The position numbers were made by a program, and so were the translations under genes. Of a stretch of 50,180 nucleotides of DNA, positions 2,104 to 41,860 are shown one piece after another (the first letter of the stretch is position 1; every line of letters starts with the position of its first letter). Origin of the DNA: a virus. Taxonomy: Duplodnaviria; Caudoviricetes. The notes under the pieces are model-generated. The model was not told the DNA's origin. It did not search any database and was given only the letters and a program-made list of their open reading frames with translations. The stretch lies in the IMG/VR virus record IMGVR_UViG_3300033141_001359, positions 1-50,180 of that record; one strand, 5' to 3'.

Positions 2104-2609
2104 ATTGAGTTGCACCGCAAGGTATGAAAAAGAGGCAATTCTAACTGTTTCCGAAAGACTATGATTTTGCGTCCAGATTGTGCTATGGCTGATTCCCCCT
2201 TCCCGGCTAACCAGATACCAACGTTTTCACCCACTACATCAAAACCGAGCGCCTTCCAAAAGCCTACCGACTCCAAGTCCGCAGCACAGCGACATCCAAG
2301 CTGCGTCACAGAACGCCGCAAACCGTCTTGGCGAATAGCATCTACCAATAACCGACCCCGCTCTAGCAAGCGGGCATCGCGCTGAATGGCTATCTGTTGA
2401 ATCTTACTGCATCCGCCGCCATGCGTGGCGTATATAAATCCCACTCGGTCGTCGTTCTCCACCGCAACGAACAGTGAACCGAGACGCTCTCTGCGTATTT
2501 CCATTTCGTATCGCTGTTTAGGGATAAATCCGACAGCATGACCTTCCTTTTTTCGTAGGTCATCAATATAGGCAATATCGGCAAGTGTAGCTCGCTCAAT
2601 CCGTGTCAT
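2100..2609 (-). CDS. GNAT-family acetyltransferase
   Basis: IERATLADI...VGFIYA...IQQIAIQRDARLLERGRLLV...SVGFWKALGF (GNAT motif A/B pattern). Confidence 0.75.
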   Translation of the reverse strand: MTRIERATLADIAYIDDLRKKEGHAVGFIPKQRYEMEIRRERLGSLFVAVENDDRVGFIYATHGGGCSKIQQIAIQRDARLLERGRLLVDAIRQDGLRRSVTQLGCRCAADLESVGFWKALGFDVVGENVGIWLAGKGESAIAQSGRKIIVFRKQLELPLFHTLRCNSI

Positions 2610-2830
2610 ACCGGCCACCATGTTAGAACCATGCGTCCTGAGATGCGGCATTTGCGCTTGTCGCCGTTTTCAACGACGCCCGCCGTCCGAAGCTCCGAGC
2701 CGCGCCGCATGATGGCATAGTAGTCTGTAATGGCGTATCCATTGAGAGCGCCCAATGCCGCAAGCTCATGTCCTGTAGCCCCAGGCCACTGCCGAATCAT
2801 CCAGAGTACCCGTGTCTGCTGGTCGCTCAT
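2606..2830 (-). CDS. Putative winged-helix DNA-binding protein
   Basis: VLWMIRQWPGATGHELA...RRGSELRTAGVV...RKCRISGR. Confidence 0.6.
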   Translation of the reverse strand: MSDQQTRVLWMIRQWPGATGHELAALGALNGYAITDYYAIMRRGSELRTAGVVENGDKRKCRISGRMVLTWWPV

Positions 2831-3168
2831 TCCGCAAAATCCTCAACGGCCCGCCTCATGGCGCGGCACACAACCGGTGGCGCGTCCGTGTGCAATTTCC
2901 GCAGATGCCCCGCCGTTGACCAGTTCGACGTAAGCCGATATTCCCACACGTTCTTCCTACGCCGACATTCAATCCGATAGCCATTGACGGGGTGACGTAA
3001 CTCCGCGATGCACGAATTGACCGCACAGATTCCCGCAGTCAGTATGAAGTCCAGCGTGCTATGCCACTGATAATCTTTCAGCACTTGCAACGTCCGCTGG
3101 AGTCGCGGTGAATTCTCGATCCTCGCAGCGTGAATCTTGCCTACATCAGGACTTTGTGGCTGTGTCAT
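2827..3168 (-). CDS. Putative winged-helix protein
   Basis: SPRLQRTLQVLKDYQWHSTLD...AVNSCIAELR...GYRIEC. Confidence 0.55.
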   Translation of the reverse strand: MTQPQSPDVGKIHAARIENSPRLQRTLQVLKDYQWHSTLDFILTAGICAVNSCIAELRHPVNGYRIECRRRKNVWEYRLTSNWSTAGHLRKLHTDAPPVVCRAMRRAVEDFAE

Positions 3169-3177
3169 CTTGCCCTC

Positions 3178-3408
3178 TCAATCCTGCTTTTTAGCCAGAA
3201 GCGCATCCAATTCCTTCGCAATCGCTGAGTCTGAAAGATAAATTTCCACAACTTCCAAAAGCCCTGCCAGGTTTTCCTTTCCAGCCAGCCATCCGCGTAG
3301 CCAATCAAGATAAAGCAAACCCTCGTCTGTCTCGGCAATCTCATCAAGACGTTGCCGGGAATACTTGCCAAACGGCATCGTAAATTCACTGGCTGTTTTC
3401 CAATCCAT
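3178..3408 (-). CDS. Small MPFGKY-motif protein (DUF3820/ExoX C-terminal-like)
   Basis: FTMPFGKYSRQRLDEI...YLDWL; GGAGGAG RBS. Confidence 0.7.
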   Translation of the reverse strand: MDWKTASEFTMPFGKYSRQRLDEIAETDEGLLYLDWLRGWLAGKENLAGLLEVVEIYLSDSAIAKELDALLAKKQD

Positions 3409-3824: not shown

Positions 3825-4013
3825 TCAATCAACGTTCTTCCCTCTGCGACATTCCTCGCAATGTAGCAAATGAAACATTCGCGCAATCCTTGCCGTGATG
3901 CGGTACTGTGCCTTGTCAAGTGTTGCTCGCCATTCATGCTTGCGTACAATACCCCACTGGCCTCCGAGCTTTCGATAGAACAAACCATCAAGCCATTTCC
4001 AAAGCAAATTCAT
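3825..4013 (-). CDS. Hypothetical protein
   Basis: MNLLWKWLDG...CEECRRGKNVD; bounded by E3 and E2. Confidence 0.6.
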   Translation of the reverse strand: MNLLWKWLDGLFYRKLGGQWGIVRKHEWRATLDKAQYRITARIARMFHLLHCEECRRGKNVD

Positions 4014-4033
4014 GGCGTGCACTCTTCCAATTC

Positions 4034-4121
4034 TGCGCGGCTGGCCGGATTTCCCGATATTCACGAGCGCTTCGGGCCGTGCCCGGCAGCCAGTACACTC
4101 GGCTCACGCCGCAGCCGCGCA
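4034..4121 (-). ncRNA. tRNA-like element E3
   Basis: Same terminal stem; UCGG-GAAAU-CCGGC before CAGCCGCGCA. Confidence 0.55.
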
Positions 4122-4124
4122 TTT

Positions 4125-5255
4125 CTATTCCTTCTCAGGTTCAAGCCCAGTACGACTCCAAATTGCACCGTTGCACCACTCCCCATTTACTTGGTTGGTG
4201 CAGTAGTATGGAGGTCGTGCCTTCTTTTCACGCTTCCCCGCTTCGTAGTCGAACTTTTCCTGTGTGCTCTCGACTACACGCTGACGCATCTGCTGCCCAC
4301 ACTCAGGGCAAGTTGGCGGCTCCGCCATCTTCTCAAGCCAAGAGTGCAGCCGCTCCGCCTGTGCTCGCGTCAGATGCTTGTCTGGTACACAGCCCACCCC
4401 CTGTTTCAGCAGCAGGAAGTCTGGGCTGGACAACCCAATTGCCCGAATCAACGCCGCCATCTTTTCCTTCTGCTCAGGTGTGATTTCCTCTTCGCCCGCC
4501 GCTTCTGCATCTGCGGCCTGTGCTTCGCCATTGAGTACGCCGTCATCCAACGGTTCGACCTCGTGATACCCAGGCGGTGGCTCGTCCTTGTCGAATGCGT
4601 TGGCAAGCTCATCCTGGAGTTCCGCCCCTTCCGCCTTCACTGCTTTGCGTTCCTCCTGCTGCACTATCGCCTTGCTGTCGAGCACAATGTCATCCCCCTG
4701 AACCCTCACAGGCAATTGCATTTCTTCATGTGTGTAAAGACCCGCCAGTGCATCAGGAATGAGCACACGCAGTATCTTGGCCGTGCATCGCCATAGCAAC
4801 ATGACCGCGGGTTGGCTCTTGTATTGCCTGCCCTTGCCGGGTGCTTTGGGTGTCGGTTTTGTCACCCCAAGCTGATGTGCGTCGGCCATTGTGAATGACA
4901 TCTCAAGCGGGCGTGGTGTGCCGACCCGTTGGGCACGAATAACGCACTTGTCGTTCGTCATCTCAAGTATCTCGAATGATTGGAGCCGTCCGCTTTTCCA
5001 TGCAAGCGCGAGCATTGTCTTGCTATCACACGTCACTTTCCCGTGCACAACGTACAGCGATGAGAGAGCTTCCATTGCAGGCATCCCAAGCTCGCGTCCC
5101 CGTTGCACAATCACTACCGCAGTGGCGGGGGTCTTGATGTGCGCGGGCAATAGCCCGCTGTCTATCCAGACTTTCGCTCGCTTCAATTCTTGCTCAACGG
5201 GTTCAAGCGCAAGCGGTACATCCTCGCGTATCGCTACTTCCTTGCTTTCGCTCAT
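4125..5255 (-). CDS. RecT/Redbeta-like single-strand annealing protein
   Basis: SGLLP...GRELGMPAMEALSSLYVVHGK...P..ML..R...ALAGLYTHEEM; acidic linker; C-terminal Zn ribbon; near a Gp157-family gene. Confidence 0.75.
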   Translation of the reverse strand: MSESKEVAIREDVPLALEPVEQELKRAKVWIDSGLLPAHIKTPATAVVIVQRGRELGMPAMEALSSLYVVHGKVTCDSKTMLALAWKSGRLQSFEILEMTNDKCVIRAQRVGTPRPLEMSFTMADAHQLGVTKPTPKAPGKGRQYKSQPAVMLLWRCTAKILRVLIPDALAGLYTHEEMQLPVRVQGDDIVLDSKAIVQQEERKAVKAEGAELQDELANAFDKDEPPPGYHEVEPLDDGVLNGEAQAADAEAAGEEEITPEQKEKMAALIRAIGLSSPDFLLLKQGVGCVPDKHLTRAQAERLHSWLEKMAEPPTCPECGQQMRQRVVESTQEKFDYEAGKREKKARPPYYCTNQVNGEWCNGAIWSRTGLEPEKE

Positions 5256-5473
5256 GGTTTCTCCTTCACGAACTCCAATGAGCACTGAACTTCACGCCGT
5301 TCTCCAAGTGCCATTTTCTTAGCTTCGGCTTCTATGCGCTCGCCGAAGAGGTCATGGATGCAATCAGAGTATAGTCGTGCTAGCTCACAATACTTACCAG
5401 GGCCGTAACCCTCTGGAGTGCAGACCGAAAACCACCTACCGTCATTTGCATCACGAATCAGGTAGTATTTCAT
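5252..5473 (-). CDS. Hypothetical protein
   Basis: ATGA overlaps on both sides. Confidence 0.6.
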   Translation of the reverse strand: MKYYLIRDANDGRWFSVCTPEGYGPGKYCELARLYSDCIHDLFGERIEAEAKKMALGERREVQCSLEFVKEKP

Positions 5474-5715
5474 GACATCTCCTTTTCGTTCTGTGCAGCT
5501 TCAAGCTGCCGAATTCTTTCTTGTAACTGTTCATAGGTTGGACGCAGTGCTCGTTCCACGGCCTTCTTTGAGGCCGCTGCCATTTCCTGATGCCGTGCTT
5601 TCCTAGCCTCTTCACGTGTTTTGCCCGTCGCTAAGTCATAGGCGCAGGGATAGCACAAAGTCTTGTTCACAGTGGCAATACCACATACTTCACATTCTAA
5701 AACCTTTACCATCAC
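5470..5715 (-). CDS. Hypothetical protein, CxxC...CxxC plus coiled coil
   Basis: CEVC, CYPC; GGAGG RBS directly after E4. Confidence 0.65.
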   Translation of the reverse strand: MMVKVLECEVCGIATVNKTLCYPCAYDLATGKTREEARKARHQEMAAASKKAVERALRPTYEQLQERIRQLEAAQNEKEMS

Positions 5716-5728
5716 ATCCTCCCAATTC

Positions 5729-5832
5729 TGCGCGGCTGGCCGGATTCCCTAACATCCCGGCCCAGGGGCTTCAAGACCCCTACGCTGGCACTCCCCACGT
5801 GCCATCGCTCACCGCCACACCACAGCCGCGCA
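5729..5832 (-). ncRNA. tRNA-like element E4 (most cloverleaf-like)
   Basis: GCGGCUG/CAGCCGC; UGGCAC-GUGGGGA-GUGCCA arm with 7-nt loop; AGGGG...CCCCU arm; GCCGG...CCGGC arm. Confidence 0.6.
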
Positions 5833-37102: not shown

Positions 37103-38836
37103 TTACCCCTCTTCGAGGCCGAGGGCTTTCCGGTGCTTCTGGAGATGCCCCTTCACCGCTGCGCTCGCCTCCTCGCCAGAGCGTGCTCCCTGAGCCGCCG
37201 CCCAGGCCGCATTCAGTCCGCCCTTGTGGAGGTAGAGCGTGCCCGTCGTGAAGCGTCCACTGTCATCAGGGCTTCCTCCGCCCTTGACCCAGTGATGTGG
37301 ATACCGCCACGTACTCACGCTCTCCGGCTTTCCCATATCGGCGAAAGCCAGTCGCGGGAGCTTGGCCTTGTCCACCTTGCCCCAGGCCGGTTCCCCTTCG
37401 GCCACTTTGCTGTTGTGTGAAAATGATTTTGCATCCAGCGCCAGACGTTCCAGCGCCAGCCGATGCCTCTTGACCTGGATGCCCCATGAGTGAAGTGCGG
37501 TCCGCCCCTCGGCAGATGCCTTCGGCTCCGTCTCCTTCAAGAGGCTTTCGAGCTCGTCAGAGAGTTTGCGTAAGCTCTCCAATGTGCTCTGTACCCGGCT
37601 TCGGTTTCGCGCCGAGAGAACGCGGCCTTCCTTCCCCTCCGACTCGCAAGGTGCGTTCACGTCCCGTCGCAACGCCTCCGCCGCTTCCGTCGCGGCCTTC
37701 GCCGCCGTAATCGTTGCCAATTCGTTCGCCGGTATCGTCGTAACGGTCACCTCAAGCAGCATGATCTCCAGCAAGTCCCGCACACTCTTCCCGCCTTCCT
37801 CGGTGTCCGTCCATTTCTTGGGGATGTAGCCGATACTCAGGCCATTGACGTGCCCCTCCACGATCTTCTGTCGCGTCTCCTGGGCTATGGGCGTGGCCGA
37901 GAATTCCGCGTGAATCCAGAGGCCAAAATCATCTTCCTTCGCCTCGGTCACTGTGCCAATAACTTCAAGGGTGTCGCCCCCGTGCGCATAGTGCCGCACC
38001 ATTAATTTGACCTTGCCCGCCGGGACGCGCTCCTTGATCGTCTTTTTGAATGCGCCCGGCTTGATGCGTTCCCCCTGCCCGTCCACGTTACCGAAGGCCG
38101 CACCATGTCCCTCCATCCAGCCAGCATCCCCCTCGTCCTTCTTGCCCTCGGCTACGTCCGCCAACGGCGCAACTTTCAGGTCGGGCTTCGGCGACGGCTT
38201 CTCAAGTCGCACATGTGTGTCAAGCTCCTTTCCCGGCTGGCCTGGCCCCGGTCTCTCAGCCCGCCGCATCTGGCCGCCGCACTTCGGGCATTTGATATTT
38301 GCACAGTGCTCGTCAGTTTTGAGCTTATGCCCGCATTCAATGCACTCGCAGTTATACTTTCTTTCGCCTTCGGACTCATCATCAGCCTTGCCCTTTTTGG
38401 CCGCCTCAAACGTGCCGTCATGTGCCTTGCAATGTGACCGCGCCTCCTCTACATCCCACGTTCCCTTCGGATAGCGGTAAGCCTGTTCGCTCATGGTTGT
38501 TTCGCCCTTGAGCTTCCCGATGATCACGTCATATTCCTTGCCGTCGTGCTTGCGACTTACGCGCCGGAAGGTCTCTTTCTGGAAATCCCCGGGCGGGCGC
38601 AGACGACAGGCGTGCTCATTCGGGTAGGGCTTGCCCTGAATGACCTGGAGCGCCTTGTCCAGAACCTCTTGTTCGCCCTCTGAGAGGCTCTTGCCCATGA
38701 CCGTGCGCCACTGGATATAGCACGCAGCGGAGCGCGCCTCGCGGTCAACGTACTTGGCGGCCATTCCTTCGTCTTCCATGCAGCGGGCGATGAATTCCCT
38801 CTGCGTCTCGTCCTCGTTCGGTTTCAGCTTTGCCAT
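37103..38836 (-). CDS. HK97-type prohead protease with extra N- and C-terminal domains
   Basis: EGHGAAFGNVD...PGAF...GLSIGY...LLEVTVTTIPAN. Confidence 0.9.
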   Translation of the reverse strand: MAKLKPNEDETQREFIARCMEDEGMAAKYVDREARSAACYIQWRTVMGKSLSEGEQEVLDKALQVIQGKPYPNEHACRLRPPGDFQKETFRRVSRKHDGKEYDVIIGKLKGETTMSEQAYRYPKGTWDVEEARSHCKAHDGTFEAAKKGKADDESEGERKYNCECIECGHKLKTDEHCANIKCPKCGGQMRRAERPGPGQPGKELDTHVRLEKPSPKPDLKVAPLADVAEGKKDEGDAGWMEGHGAAFGNVDGQGERIKPGAFKKTIKERVPAGKVKLMVRHYAHGGDTLEVIGTVTEAKEDDFGLWIHAEFSATPIAQETRQKIVEGHVNGLSIGYIPKKWTDTEEGGKSVRDLLEIMLLEVTVTTIPANELATITAAKAATEAAEALRRDVNAPCESEGKEGRVLSARNRSRVQSTLESLRKLSDELESLLKETEPKASAEGRTALHSWGIQVKRHRLALERLALDAKSFSHNSKVAEGEPAWGKVDKAKLPRLAFADMGKPESVSTWRYPHHWVKGGGSPDDSGRFTTGTLYLHKGGLNAAWAAAQGARSGEEASAAVKGHLQKHRKALGLEEG

Positions 38837-38848
38837 TTCTCTGTCCCC

Positions 38849-41800
38849 TTAGATTGAAGCGAGCAATGTGCATCGGCAGTTGCTTGACACCACCCCGTTG
38901 GCAATGTATAATGATGGTATTGTTTGGAGGTCGTAAACATGACCACGAAAGTTTCGGCGTCTTGTGAACGTGACGTTTGTCGGCAGTATCTCTCCGGCAT
39001 ATCCGCTCAAAAGCTCGCGGAATTCACGGGCATCAACCTTGCGACTGTGTTTAGAATCCTTCACAGAAATGCCATCAAGCCCAATCAGAGAATACTGCTC
39101 TTGGACACGAGCGATATTGTCCGGCGCTATGTCGCCGGGGAATCTGAATTGGCGCTTTCCCGCTCGTTTCACGTTTCCAGAACAGCCATTCGCCGCCGAC
39201 TTCTTGCTGCTAATATCACTCCGCGAAGTGGAAGCGACGCCAACAAAATCAGAATGCAAAAGCTCTCTCCGGCTGAACGCCTCAGCCTCACGTCTGCCGC
39301 CCATGATGCTATCCGCAACCGCCCCCAATCTGAGGAGCATCGTTGCAAAATCGCGTTCACCAGGGAGAGGAAGCAACTCGGCATAGCTCCCGCTGAAACC
39401 CGTCTCGCCATTGCTCTTGCGGGTCGGGGTTTGACCGTGACTGCGCAAAAAGCTATCGGTCGCTATAACGTTGACCTTGCCATTGAGGAAGGTTCCGTCG
39501 CCGTGGAAATATTCGGGGGTCATTGGCACACGACCGGTCGTCATGCCCTTGGATGCCGCAAGCGCCTTGACTACATCATCAATGCGGGTTGGGTGCCCGT
39601 TATTATTTGGGTGACTCCCGATTATCCTCTCGAAGCTGGGGCAGTAAATTACTTGGTCTCCCTCTCGAAGGCTCTTAGCCTTGGCAAAGCCCCAAGGGGT
39701 CAAGAGCATGTGATTCGGGGTGACGGTAAGCCGACCGGAATCGGCAAAACCAAGCTCAATTACCGGGCCGTTGTAGGGGGCGACAAAACCGGCAAGCTTA
39801 CCAGGGGCCAGGATGGCCGTTTCACCAGCGACGCAGTTGGGATGTAACGGCGGATGTTCCACGTCAAACGGTATGTCCATGTGGCCGCCGGTCAATTCCG
39901 TGTATCCGTCCACTTCTGTCTCCCCCTCAAGCCGCGTCCCCGCCGCGACAAACCGGTCGTTTATCGGTATCTCCATTCCGTCAAACGCTGAGCAGTAGTC
40001 GCAGTTGTGAACGAGGATACCATTCGCATAGAAGCACGCCGCATCCTCAACTTTGATGTCAAATACGGTTGCTTTGCCTTGCCACAGATGATATAATGCC
40101 CGAAGTCCTGTCAGGAGTATAGAGCCATGTATCATCTTACCTGTGAGTATTGCGGCAAGGCATTTGAGCGCCCTTCGCATCCAGTTGGTGCACACACATA
40201 TTGTAGTACTCGCTGTTATCATGCCGCGACGAAGAAAGCTCCGACTTTGACTTGCCAGATATGCGGCGCGAAATTTATCGTACCTACATCCACCGCCAAT
40301 CGGGGACGACGCTTCTGTTCTCGTGCCTGTTATCTGCGAAGCACAGCCAACAAGGTACTGAAGGTCTGCGCCGTTTGTGGCAAGACTTTTGCTATCAACG
40401 CCAGCATTGCCGAGCGATATACCGTTTGTAGTTGGAAGTGCCGGGCACATGTTCGGCGAACTCAAATCTGTGTCCGCTGTGGTAAATCGTTTATTACCAA
40501 CAGACCAAAGGGGAAGTATTGTTCCGAAGCATGTTATCGGCCCCCCCACCTTTTTACCTGCCTCACATGCGGCAAGAAGTTTCGGAGGCAACCCACGAGT
40601 AATCGCCGATTTTGTTCTATTGCCTGTTACCGACGCTATCAGGGCGAAACTAGAATCGAAAAGATTGTCCGCAAAGCCCTGGAGGCTGCGCACATTTCGT
40701 TTAATCAAGAACGTCAGGTCGGACGTTACTCGATTGATTTTGCGCTTCCAAAAGGCAAGATTGCGCTGGAGGTAGATGGTAAATATTGGCACCAAGATAT
40801 GCGCCGCGACGCCCGCAAAACGCGCTATCTTCAGAAGCGGGGATGGACGGTCATTAGGATTACCGAAGACCAAATCAACAACAGTCACAACATGGTCGCC
40901 CTTGTTATCGGGATTTTGAATAACATCCCCGGTTTTCAGATTACCCGCCTTGACCCACCCGCGTGACTTCTCGTATATTCGATGATTCGCCGTGCATAGG
41001 AGCATCCCGTTCTCACAGCACACCAATGACAGCGGCCCATCTGTGGCTCGTTGGCTCTTCGCCATGACTCTTCGCAGACCTTCCGGCGTACACACGAGGT
41101 CGCCTGGTTCAATATCCTTGATTGCCACAGTTCCGTCAGCACTAAGTACCCTGCTATACCCATCCAAACACAACGCATCGTCGTCCGTTACCAGCCAACT
41201 TACCGTCCCAACGCCCTCATCGGCATAAAGCTGCTTCGCGCCCTCGTTGTAGCTCCATATCGTGGTTGTACGGGTTATCAGTTCCGCACGAGTCTTGCTT
41301 CGCGCAAGCCCCTGTGAGAGCAGTTGCTTTTGCATATCACGCGGCGTTAGGCCCTCTGCCGCCCCCCGCCTGACAATCCGCTCTATCTCGCGTGCGCTTG
41401 TCTCCGTCTCCCATTTCGAAGTCATCGCCACCCAATCACCGACCGGCGTATGGAGCCGCTGCGCGAGATACGCCTCATGCCCGAACGCCGTCTCAAGCTC
41501 GCCGATTGAAATCGGCGGGGTCGGCGGCTCAGCATCCAGTATGATTTCGTCCTTCGCCATCATCTCGCGTATCGCAGCCCCCTTGCCGAATTCCACCTCG
41601 GCCAGGTGGTAGCCGTCCATTGTCATGGCGAGCATCAGCGGCAGCTTCACCGCCGCCAGCGATTTCGCCCATTTCGGCGCGAGTTCGGCGGCCCACTTCT
41701 GCCGCCCCTCGCCCACGGCCTTTGCCGCTTCCTTGACGTGTGCAGCCAGCTCTCTCCGCATCGCCTGCCGCATCTTCGGCAGCCAGCCGTCGGATATTGC

Positions 41801-41860
41801 TGCCCGCCTTATGGCGACGGCGGGGTTACTTCTCCGTTTGGCCATCAGCGGCATATTCAA
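38849..41860 (-). CDS. MuF / SPP1 gp7-like head morphogenesis protein interrupted by two inteins (about 295 aa after splicing)
   Basis: RAELITRT...W....DDAL|CDYC...PPLHPN|CRC restored by removing both inteins. Confidence 0.9.
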   Translation of the reverse strand: MNMPLMAKRRSNPAVAIRRAAISDGWLPKMRQAMRRELAAHVKEAAKAVGEGRQKWAAELAPKWAKSLAAVKLPLMLAMTMDGYHLAEVEFGKGAAIREMMAKDEIILDAEPPTPPISIGELETAFGHEAYLAQRLHTPVGDWVAMTSKWETETSAREIERIVRRGAAEGLTPRDMQKQLLSQGLARSKTRAELITRTTTIWSYNEGAKQLYADEGVGTVSWLVTDDDALCLDGYSRVLSADGTVAIKDIEPGDLVCTPEGLRRVMAKSQRATDGPLSLVCCENGMLLCTANHRIYEKSRGWVKAGNLKTGDVIQNPDNKGDHVVTVVDLVFGNPNDRPSPLLKIARFAGVAAHILVPIFTIYLQRNLAFWKRKINRVTSDLTFLIKRNVRSLQGFADNLFDSSFALIASVTGNRTKSAITRGLPPKLLAACEAGKKVGGPITCFGTILPLWSVGNKRFTTADTDLSSPNMCPALPTTNGISLGNAGVDSKSLATNGADLQYLVGCASQITGTRTEASSPIGGGCRYDKFRAAYLASQSRSFLRRGMITASTTICVCTNWMRRALKCLAAILTGKMIHGSILLTGLRALYHLWQGKATVFDIKVEDAACFYANGILVHNCDYCSAFDGMEIPINDRFVAAGTRLEGETEVDGYTELTGGHMDIPFDVEHPPLHPNCVAGETAILAPGKLAGFVAPYNGPVIELGFADSGRLTVTPNHMLLTPWGFAKAKSLREGDQVIYCPSFERIIGSHPNNNGHPTRIDDVVKALAASKGMTTGRVPMTPEYFHGDGTFLNGKVNVIATDSFLRSHGQTPTRKSNGETGFSGSYAELLPLPGERDFATMLLRLGAVADSIMGGRREAEAFSRRELLHSDFVGVASTSRSDISSKKSAANGCSGNVKRAGKRQFRFPGDIAPDNIARVQEQYSLIGLDGISVKDSKHSRKVDAREFRELLSGYAGEILPTNVTFTRRRNFRGHVYDLQTIPSLYIANGVVSSNCRCTLLASI
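38879..39835 (-). mobile_element. Intein 2 (319 aa) in MuF HPN|CRC
   Basis: CVAGET (block A), LTVTPNH (block B), VYDLQT...YIANGVVSSN|C (blocks F/G; penultimate Ser). Confidence 0.88.
38884..38912 (+). promoter_or_regulatory. Perfect sigma70 promoter inside intein 2, antisense
   Basis: TTGACA (38884-89)-17 bp-TATAAT (38907-12); GGAGG at 38926-30; ATG at 38939. Confidence 0.9.
38939..39847 (+). CDS. Antisense-encoded putative homing endonuclease: two HTH, NUMOD3-like motif, Vsr/DUF559-like nuclease
   Basis: YLSGISAQKLA..TGINLATVFRIL; YVAGESELALSRSFHVSRTAIRRRL; QSEEHRCKIA; E...QKAIGRYNVDLA...VAVEIFGGHWH...GW. Confidence 0.85.
   Translation: MTTKVSASCERDVCRQYLSGISAQKLAEFTGINLATVFRILHRNAIKPNQRILLLDTSDIVRRYVAGESELALSRSFHVSRTAIRRRLLAANITPRSGSDANKIRMQKLSPAERLSLTSAAHDAIRNRPQSEEHRCKIAFTRERKQLGIAPAETRLAIALAGRGLTVTAQKAIGRYNVDLAIEEGSVAVEIFGGHWHTTGRHALGCRKRLDYIINAGWVPVIIWVTPDYPLEAGAVNYLVSLSKALSLGKAPRGQEHVIRGDGKPTGIGKTKLNYRAVVGGDKTGKLTRGQDGRFTSDAVGM
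40069..40097 (+). promoter_or_regulatory. sigma70 promoter inside intein 1, antisense
   Basis: TTGCTT (40069-74)-17 bp-TATAAT (40092-97) with TGn extension; AGGAG at 40113-17; ATG at 40127. Confidence 0.85.
40127..40966 (+). CDS. Antisense-encoded putative homing endonuclease: five Cys4 Zn-finger repeats plus DUF559/Vsr-like nuclease
   Basis: 5 x CxxCG..F...CS..C; ETRIE...QERQVGRYSIDFA...ALEVDGKYWH...D..K...L...GWTVIRI. Confidence 0.92.
   Translation: MYHLTCEYCGKAFERPSHPVGAHTYCSTRCYHAATKKAPTLTCQICGAKFIVPTSTANRGRRFCSRACYLRSTANKVLKVCAVCGKTFAINASIAERYTVCSWKCRAHVRRTQICVRCGKSFITNRPKGKYCSEACYRPPHLFTCLTCGKKFRRQPTSNRRFCSIACYRRYQGETRIEKIVRKALEAAHISFNQERQVGRYSIDFALPKGKIALEVDGKYWHQDMRRDARKTRYLQKRGWTVIRITEDQINNSHNMVALVIGILNNIPGFQITRLDPPA

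Follow-up and report, generated by a model that had tools for sequence, protein, structure and literature searches.

Two inteins in one phage MuF-like gene, each with a predicted Vsr-like endonuclease gene on the opposite strand

We analysed a stretch of 50,180 bp from a virus of the Caudoviricetes (IMG/VR record IMGVR_UViG_3300033141_001359, positions 1 to 50,180; hereafter the window), which is a complete virus record bounded by terminal repeats. A MuF-like head-morphogenesis gene on its minus strand is interrupted by two inteins, and the opposite strand of each intein holds a further open reading frame (ORF). Our reading, which we hold to be highly probable, is that these are two independent mobile inteins, each with a complete antisense gene for a Vsr-like homing endonuclease. 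It is supported by the anatomy of the gene, by homology, by purifying selection resolved segment by segment, by conservation of a promoter and by a presence/absence polymorphism among related phages; from these we infer splicing, antisense expression and cleavage. The first-pass annotation of the window, made from the letters of the DNA, had proposed a two-stranded element in which one strand supplies splicing and the other the homing nuclease, and the selection and comparative evidence given below supports this proposal.

The coordinates and junctions that had been assigned to the two inteins (Table 1) hold. Computed excision of both joins DDDAL to CDYC and PPLHPN to CRC, restoring the MuF motifs DDALCDYC and PPLHPNCRC in a product of 295 amino acids (aa). 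The Pfam family Intein_splicing matched the MuF ORF with 46.4 bits against a cut-off of 35.8, the best stretch being aa 275-619 in intein 1. Both inteins have the nucleophile and terminal residues of class 1 (C231...N619|C620 in intein 1, C676...N994|C995 in intein 2) and both contain the block B motif TxxH (T60/H63 in intein 1, T39/H42 in intein 2). C1, T60, H63, H388 and N389 of intein 1 were conserved in 38/38 members of its family, and C1, H42 and N319 of intein 2 were invariant in 43 sequences, with T39 kept in at least 90%. An AlphaFold2 model of intein 2 showed a confident Hint fold, with a predicted local distance difference test score (pLDDT) above 90 at residues 1-65 and 280-319, and matched Mtu RecA mini-intein chains with a Foldseek probability of 1.00 over about 95 columns; residues 129-266 formed a stretch of low confidence. 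The sense middles had been described as open but free of any nuclease motif, and a Pfam search of the two middles matched no family.

The reverse strands encode Vsr/DUF559-like nucleases with DNA-binding modules, as had been predicted: ORF A lies opposite intein 2 and ORF B opposite intein 1. Both are codon-aligned with the sense frame, so that every antisense codon sits exactly on one sense codon, and they are homologous to each other (29-30% identity, E ~1e-10). ORF B matched DUF559 above the Pfam cut-off (E 2.4e-13), together with Vsr and zinc-finger families, and the profile of its family matched the catalytic domain of I-Bth0305I (PDB 3r3p) at 5.7e-15. D204 and H222 of ORF B, invariant in 30/30 sequences, align to the positions mutated in 3r3p (D196 and H213 of I-Bth0305I). 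ORF A gave helix-turn-helix (HTH) matches in Pfam and a match below the cut-off to MTES_1575, a restriction endonuclease (REase) family (5.2e-05), and its family profile found 3hrl (1.9e-05), 3r3p (0.017) and Vsr 1cw0 (0.039). Its residues D179, W196 and H197 were invariant in 43/43 sequences; the equivalence of D179 and H197 to the catalytic Asp and His of I-Bth0305I was judged from motif position. The AlphaFold2 model of ORF A had a pLDDT of 83.7, and its top Foldseek matches were 1vsr, 3r3p and 3hrl, with probabilities of 0.99-1.00 at E values of only 0.01-0.1. Residues 269-302 of the model, opposite the Hint N-lobe, scored below 50, and the last ~35 residues of ORF A are an unselected tail over the Hint N-domain. 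The two ORFs had also been called the only convincing plus-strand genes in 50 kb; consistent with this claim, although short of proving it, 0 of the 10 other long plus-strand ORFs in the window matched Pfam or PHROGs at E <= 0.001.

We regard the comparative data as decisive for real, selected antisense genes. Relatives of ORF A (A-type) were found on 80 viral contigs, at 33-62% identity. The aligned opposite frame was open over the whole match in 80/80, within ORFs of 279-1311 aa, and these host ORFs carried intein N blocks (80/80) and C blocks (76/80) flanking the nuclease, with an insertion site that was nearly always ...PPLHPN|C...SSN|CRC. The nuclease frame was intact in 79/80. The broken one, in L072 (~4001-4711), has an open span of 16 codons at the start of the match, and its sense intein frame is open over 494 aa; this looks like a decaying endonuclease within a maintained intein. 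An exact-peptide pattern of the intein 1 sense protein gave no match in the viral contigs, and the second family (B-type) was reached by aligning ORF B with 29 relatives from databases, which led to 160 loci, 131 of them distinct. The aligned frame was open in 91 of the 131 distinct loci and not open in the other 40, which are free-standing; both intein junction matches were obtained for 52 of the 91. The B-type insertion site, ...DDRV|CFPA...LVHN|CxxC, is the other conserved MuF motif. Three contigs (L107, L129 and L152) carry an A-type and a B-type element in one MuF ORF of 978-1000 aa, like the window, and their nucleases are 37-51% identical to those of the window. A partial second B-type match was seen at L096 2283-2513 (minus), on the other strand and ~1 kb from the embedded copy.

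Selection on the antisense frame in the intein middles had been named as a check on the two-stranded proposal, and the wobble shifts to the nuclease frame in both families when their inteins (46 non-redundant A-type, 38 B-type) are aligned by codon. The most variable position in intein 2 was sense position 3 at residues 1-60 and 281-319 and sense position 1 at residues 61-280; in intein 1 it was sense position 3 at residues 1-100 and 361-389 and sense position 1 at residues 101-360. Since sense position 1 is antisense position 3, the wobble position of the nuclease, the frame of selection switches in both intein middles. The conserved columns of the middles are the Cys pairs, Asp, Glu, Trp and His of the nuclease, where the antisense wobble varies freely and sense residues show no conservation. 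Codon choice shows the same constraint. Codons that would stop the sense frame (TTA, CTA and TCA) numbered 0 in the A-type nucleases against 276 expected from local synonymous usage (62 distinct loci, G+C content (GC) 0.36-0.70). Free-standing B-type genes contained 265 such codons in 9,853, with at least one in each locus, against 7 in 23,481 codons of the embedded ones, and these 7 fall in the 30-nt tolerance at the match edges.

The first-pass annotation had assigned a Shine-Dalgarno sequence and a promoter to each nuclease. Both Shine-Dalgarno sequences can be read from the DNA, and the predicted promoter of ORF A is conserved; ORF B has a promoter-like site, for which the full promoter score of its family is given below. 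The block-G codons S-L-Y-I-A-N-G-V-V-S-S, read in reverse complement, contain the hexamers of the predicted ORF A promoter. At the homologous offset, a promoter scoring at least 10/12 was present in 29 of the 46 non-redundant A-type members and was perfect in 15, against a maximum of 9 in the controls. It was present in 28/31 inteins ending in S/A-S-N and in 0/14 ending in H/Q-N, which suggests that the embedded -35 hexamer shaped the unusual penultimate Ser of the A-type inteins. In the B-type family a TGnTATAAT-like element (at least 7 of 8 positions) was found at the homologous offset in 14/38 members and in 0/38 controls.

Table 1. Features of the MuF-like gene, its inteins and the genes opposite them (window coordinates)
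Feature	Position	Strand	Description
MuF-like head-morphogenesis gene	38849..41860	minus	1003 codons + stop; PHROG head-morphogenesis matches
MuF exteins	41171-41860, 39836-40003, 38852-38878	minus	230+56+9 aa
Intein 1	40004..41170	minus	aa 231-619, 389 aa, class 1; MuF site DDAL|CDYC; CLDGYS...GILVHN then CDYC
Intein 2	38879..39835	minus	aa 676-994, 319 aa; MuF site HPN|CRC; CVAGET...GVVSSN then CRC
ORF A, antisense nuclease gene	38939..39847	plus	302 aa from ATG (307 aa from TTG 38924); HTH modules + Vsr-like domain
ORF A sigma-70 consensus promoter	38884..38912	plus	TTGACA-17-TATAAT, 12/12 match; predicted
ORF A Shine-Dalgarno GGAGG	38927..38931	plus	7 nt before ATG 38939; read from sequence
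ORF B, antisense nuclease gene	40127..40966	plus	279 aa; five CxxC...CxxC zinc fingers + Vsr-like/EDxHD catalytic domain
ORF B extended -10-like element TGaTATAAT	40089..40097	plus	upstream of ORF B; -35 (TTGCTT) weak
ORF B Shine-Dalgarno AGGAG	40113..40117	plus	9 nt before ATG 40127; read from sequence

The distribution of the A-type gene among deposited phages bears on its mobility. A tblastn search found the gene in 121 deposited phage records, from phages of Salmonella, Gordonia, Pseudomonas, Klebsiella and other hosts; in Gordonia phages it lies antisense within MuF genes. Among the matches listed, the annotation of the overlying gene was almost always MuF, head morphogenesis or hypothetical protein, and the nuclease gene itself was always unannotated. 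Comparison of Jerseyvirus with phage 5sent1 shows a difference of exactly 272 aa at HPN|C and exteins that are identical at 338/347 positions (97%). Of 406 records of Jersey-like Salmonella phages, 58 cover at least 80% of the intein-bearing gene, and many of the Jersey-like records among the matches listed align in two pieces spanning ~1,030-1,045 bp. In Jerseyvirus jersey (L255 1708-2517, plus) the antisense ORF is intact (269 aa), but its GGHWH motif reads GGGWA, with both histidines lost, and this Jersey-type copy of the nuclease, which is widespread in Salmonella phages, may be inactive.

Eleven of the 40 free-standing B-type relatives adjoin a MuF-like gene. In the two that were inspected (L005 3905-4729, plus, with MuF at 4715-5761, minus; L144 3495-4361, plus, with MuF at 4340-5254, minus), the nuclease gene and an intein-less MuF gene are convergent, with 3' ends that overlap by 15 nt in L005 and 22 nt in L144. 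The embedded form may have arisen from this arrangement, which fits an origin in which an adjacent free-standing endonuclease gene invaded a mini-intein. The different DNA-binding modules of the two nucleases and the free-standing B-type relatives, some of them beside an intein-less MuF gene, also fit the earlier suggestion that the nucleases were assembled independently or repeatedly. Mycobacterium phages Fishburne (L094 2465-3262, plus) and KilKor (L093) carry a B-type zinc-finger/DUF559 ORF (265 aa) without an intein, which lies antisense between the N- and C-terminal parts of a DNA methylase gene. Fishburne gene 58 (2417-3205, minus, 'hypothetical protein') is the opposite strand of this ORF and is probably mis-called; the corresponding stretch of KilKor is unannotated.

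We propose the following mechanism for the window. The inteins occupy the two most conserved motifs of MuF, D-x-x-V|CxxC and HPN|CRC, and their sense strand would supply the Hint splicing domain alone, as N and C lobes, with a largely unconstrained filler between the lobes that would leave with the intein. In the opposite direction, these codons would specify a Vsr-like (EDxHD/I-Bth0305I-type) nuclease that has a DNA-binding module and, for its gene, a promoter-like site and a ribosome-binding site of its own. The host frame would stay open through avoidance in the nuclease gene of TTA, CTA and TCA, the sole codons that read as stops on the opposite strand; the codon-aligned register is probably found because just these three codons need to be avoided. 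Host RNA polymerase would transcribe the nuclease gene from its own promoter. During a mixed infection, the nuclease would attack MuF alleles that lack the intein, cutting close to the empty site; repair would copy intein and nuclease as one unit, and splicing would then restore the 295-aa MuF protein. We give about even weight to the further view that this is a long co-evolved two-strand element and not a recent insertion. To that view belong the block G reshaped by a promoter, the co-encoded E-x-x-H-G-D motif described below, the surviving free-standing ancestor, the occurrence in phages of Proteobacteria and Actinobacteria, and the finding that both MuF motifs can be occupied together by elements with different DNA-binding modules.

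Several points weigh against the reading of two mobile inteins with antisense homing genes. In the window alone, the open antisense frames are just moderately unlikely. TTA, CTA and TCA are rare there (1.3% of codons); given the synonymous codon usage of the genome, a frame free of these codons would arise by chance with a probability of 0.007 at ORF A and 0.064 at ORF B, and aligned antisense frames in ordinary genes of the window are open for up to 283 codons. The compared loci are related to each other and phylogenetically non-independent, so that summed probabilities overstate the significance. B-type loci were classed as embedded by the openness of the frame, and 15 of the 91 have short spans without a Hint junction match and may be free-standing. 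Full -35/-10 scoring of the B-type family found no excess over controls. Intein 2 ends in S-S-N, without the usual, though not universal, penultimate His; 31 of the 46 members of its family end in S/A-S-N. The polymorphism of the Jersey-like phages may reflect old homing or precise loss and not current activity, since the Jersey-type nuclease has lost the histidines of its WH motif. Lastly, the middle of intein 2 contains a sense motif, E-x-x-H-G-D (residues 108-113; window ~39497-39514), in which E108, H111, G112 and D113 are 89-98% conserved and which shares its codons with the nuclease strand IAVEIF of ORF A. At these codons the wobble base of the nuclease is fixed, and at D113 conservation reaches 98% in the sense residue and 54% in the antisense one. 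By this pattern the motif is selected in its own right; a few codons in the middle of intein 2 would therefore be selected on both strands, and this middle is not pure filler. The codon alignment of the B-type family showed nothing comparable in the middle of intein 1.

Of the other explanations, the one that fares best is that the nucleases are free-standing homing genes which have lodged in the tolerant middle of a mini-intein and spread themselves, without driving the homing of the intein. It draws on the B-type relatives, 40/131 of which are free-standing, and on the 11 of these that adjoin a MuF-like gene, with both inspected cases convergent with an intein-less MuF. We nevertheless consider it unlikely: the Jersey-like polymorphism is all-or-none for intein and nuclease, at exactly 272 aa, and the position of the ORF A promoter within the block-G codons in 29/46 members argues for long co-evolution of the two. 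Recruitment of the nucleases for another phage function, such as excluding competing phages or degrading DNA, with the inteins now inherited vertically, is less probable still, because the closest solved relative is a site-specific homing enzyme, the insertions lie at the two most conserved MuF motifs, and presence and absence alternate among phages with 97% identical exteins; this is so even though the three diverged double-intein relatives (L107, L129 and L152) are in keeping with it and the available text of a recent preprint (bioRxiv 10.1101/2025.01.02.630785) sees most VSR-like cases as vertically inherited. That the plus-strand ORFs are untranslated products of chance or relics, and the sense middle an unrecognised in-frame domain such as an unknown nuclease, was rejected as hardly credible: the GC-rich genome with its long open antisense frames in ordinary genes and the high pLDDT of intein 2 sense residues 80-126 would allow it, but it is the antisense frame that shows the wobble pattern, contains the invariant residues for catalysis and zinc binding and gives the significant DUF559 and 3r3p matches, 0/10 other aligned antisense ORFs in related portal-MuF genes match Pfam, and neither do the sense middles.

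The layout is not a new class, and the window is a further case of a kind described recently; here the first-pass annotation, which had taken the class to be undescribed, was wrong. Contiguous actinophage inteins whose VSR-like endonuclease is encoded antisense are described in the available text of the preprint by Gosselin, Arsenault & Gogarten (bioRxiv 10.1101/2025.01.02.630785), which also reports contiguous inteins with an antisense LAGLIDADG enzyme, counts minor capsid proteins among the hosts, and derives such inteins from invasion by a free-standing endonuclease; for the antisense LAGLIDADG type it cites Gorbalenya 1998 and Gogarten et al. 2002 as the earlier sources. Like the inteins described there, those of the window have an uninterrupted intein ORF with an opposite-strand Vsr-like ORF between the splicing blocks, a minor capsid (MuF) host gene and a sense middle without a recognisable fold. 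Unlike those actinophage inteins, they belong to a metagenomic phage, have sigma-70-type signals and occur as two in one gene, and the second nuclease is zinc-fingered and not helical. The words 'promoter', 'Shine-Dalgarno' and 'two inteins' are absent from the main text of the preprint, and its text yielded nothing on a zinc-finger type, double occupancy, spread beyond actinophages, a register aligned by codon or a codon choice that avoids stops; more, including zinc-finger or double cases, may be listed in its supplementary tables. The antisense LAGLIDADG inteins (Synechocystis DnaX and others, as cited in the same preprint text) share the opposite-strand endonuclease and the contiguous intein, but their nuclease family is not Vsr-like and their host genes are others.

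Three further systems are related more distantly. In the 'fractured genes' of Dassa et al. 2009 (PMC2677866), the two parts of a split intein flank a free-standing endonuclease gene of the Vsr-like or GIY-YIG type. They resemble the present case in the nuclease family, in a separate gene at the endonuclease-insertion point of the intein and in the phage setting; however, all three of their coding regions are on one strand and the split intein acts by trans-splicing, whereas here the nuclease is on the opposite strand of a contiguous frame of 1003 codons. I-Bth0305I, the prototype EDxHD homing endonuclease (Taylor et al. 2011, PMC3239194; PDB 3R3P is the catalytic domain of the D196A/H213A mutant), shares with our ORFs the Vsr-like catalytic domain and the invariant Asp and His, and its N-terminal DNA-binding region has HTH/NUMOD-like modules as in ORF A. 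Its gene lies in a group I intron of recA, on that gene's own strand, while ORF B is antisense and has zinc fingers. The ShiLan-type insertions in phage methylases, with a hidden out-of-frame HNH endonuclease (Arsenault et al. 2025, PMC11855218, in the part of the article available), likewise place a homing nuclease in another frame of an insertion that is read through without stops, but there the frame is shifted on the same strand, the enzyme is of the HNH type and there is no splicing domain. What we consider worth reporting from the window and its relatives is the double occupancy, the zinc-finger EDxHD nuclease at the second MuF site, the spread well outside actinophages, the block-G promoter and the stop-avoiding codons.

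If our reading is correct, two selfish elements would be packed into one stretch of DNA, with ~0.8 kb coding for protein in both directions, twice in one gene, and the cost of this two-strand coding would be three codons that are never used. For annotation, the result points to an antisense nuclease gene that has been overlooked under 'MuF/head morphogenesis' genes in 121 deposited phage records. For intein biology, the two families provide material for the model in which splicing comes first and the endonuclease invades later. They are also a source of compact Vsr-type nucleases, encoded separately and equipped with either of two kinds of DNA-binding module.

The assignment of the interrupted gene to MuF was examined in its relatives as well. 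The window protein matched PHROG head-morphogenesis families (best 9.8e-10) and, its domain being broken up by the two inteins, reached 15.4 bits with Pfam Phage_Mu_F (PF04233), a weak score under the cut-off of 29.6. Homologous sense ORFs passed this cut-off with 32.7-51.3 bits, and there the profile match stops at the intein junction. When eight long A-type host ORFs were scanned, 7/8 were portal fusions and six also matched Phage_Mu_F; the match of these six broke off at the intein or close to it, five times at profile position 107 of 112. The possibility that these long ORFs contain second inteins was rejected: they are portal-MuF fusions, and their 10 extra aligned antisense ORFs are those without a Pfam match mentioned above. 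A DNA search with the whole MuF gene in distant mode matched nothing among deposited phages. GC skew and AT skew, negative across the window, are about zero at 39-41 kb, which we count in favour of the main reading, and GC is down to 0.50 at 40-41 kb. Immediately downstream of MuF lies a gene (window 37103-38836, minus, 577 aa) that has a CxxC...CxxC zinc-ribbon segment in its N-terminal part.

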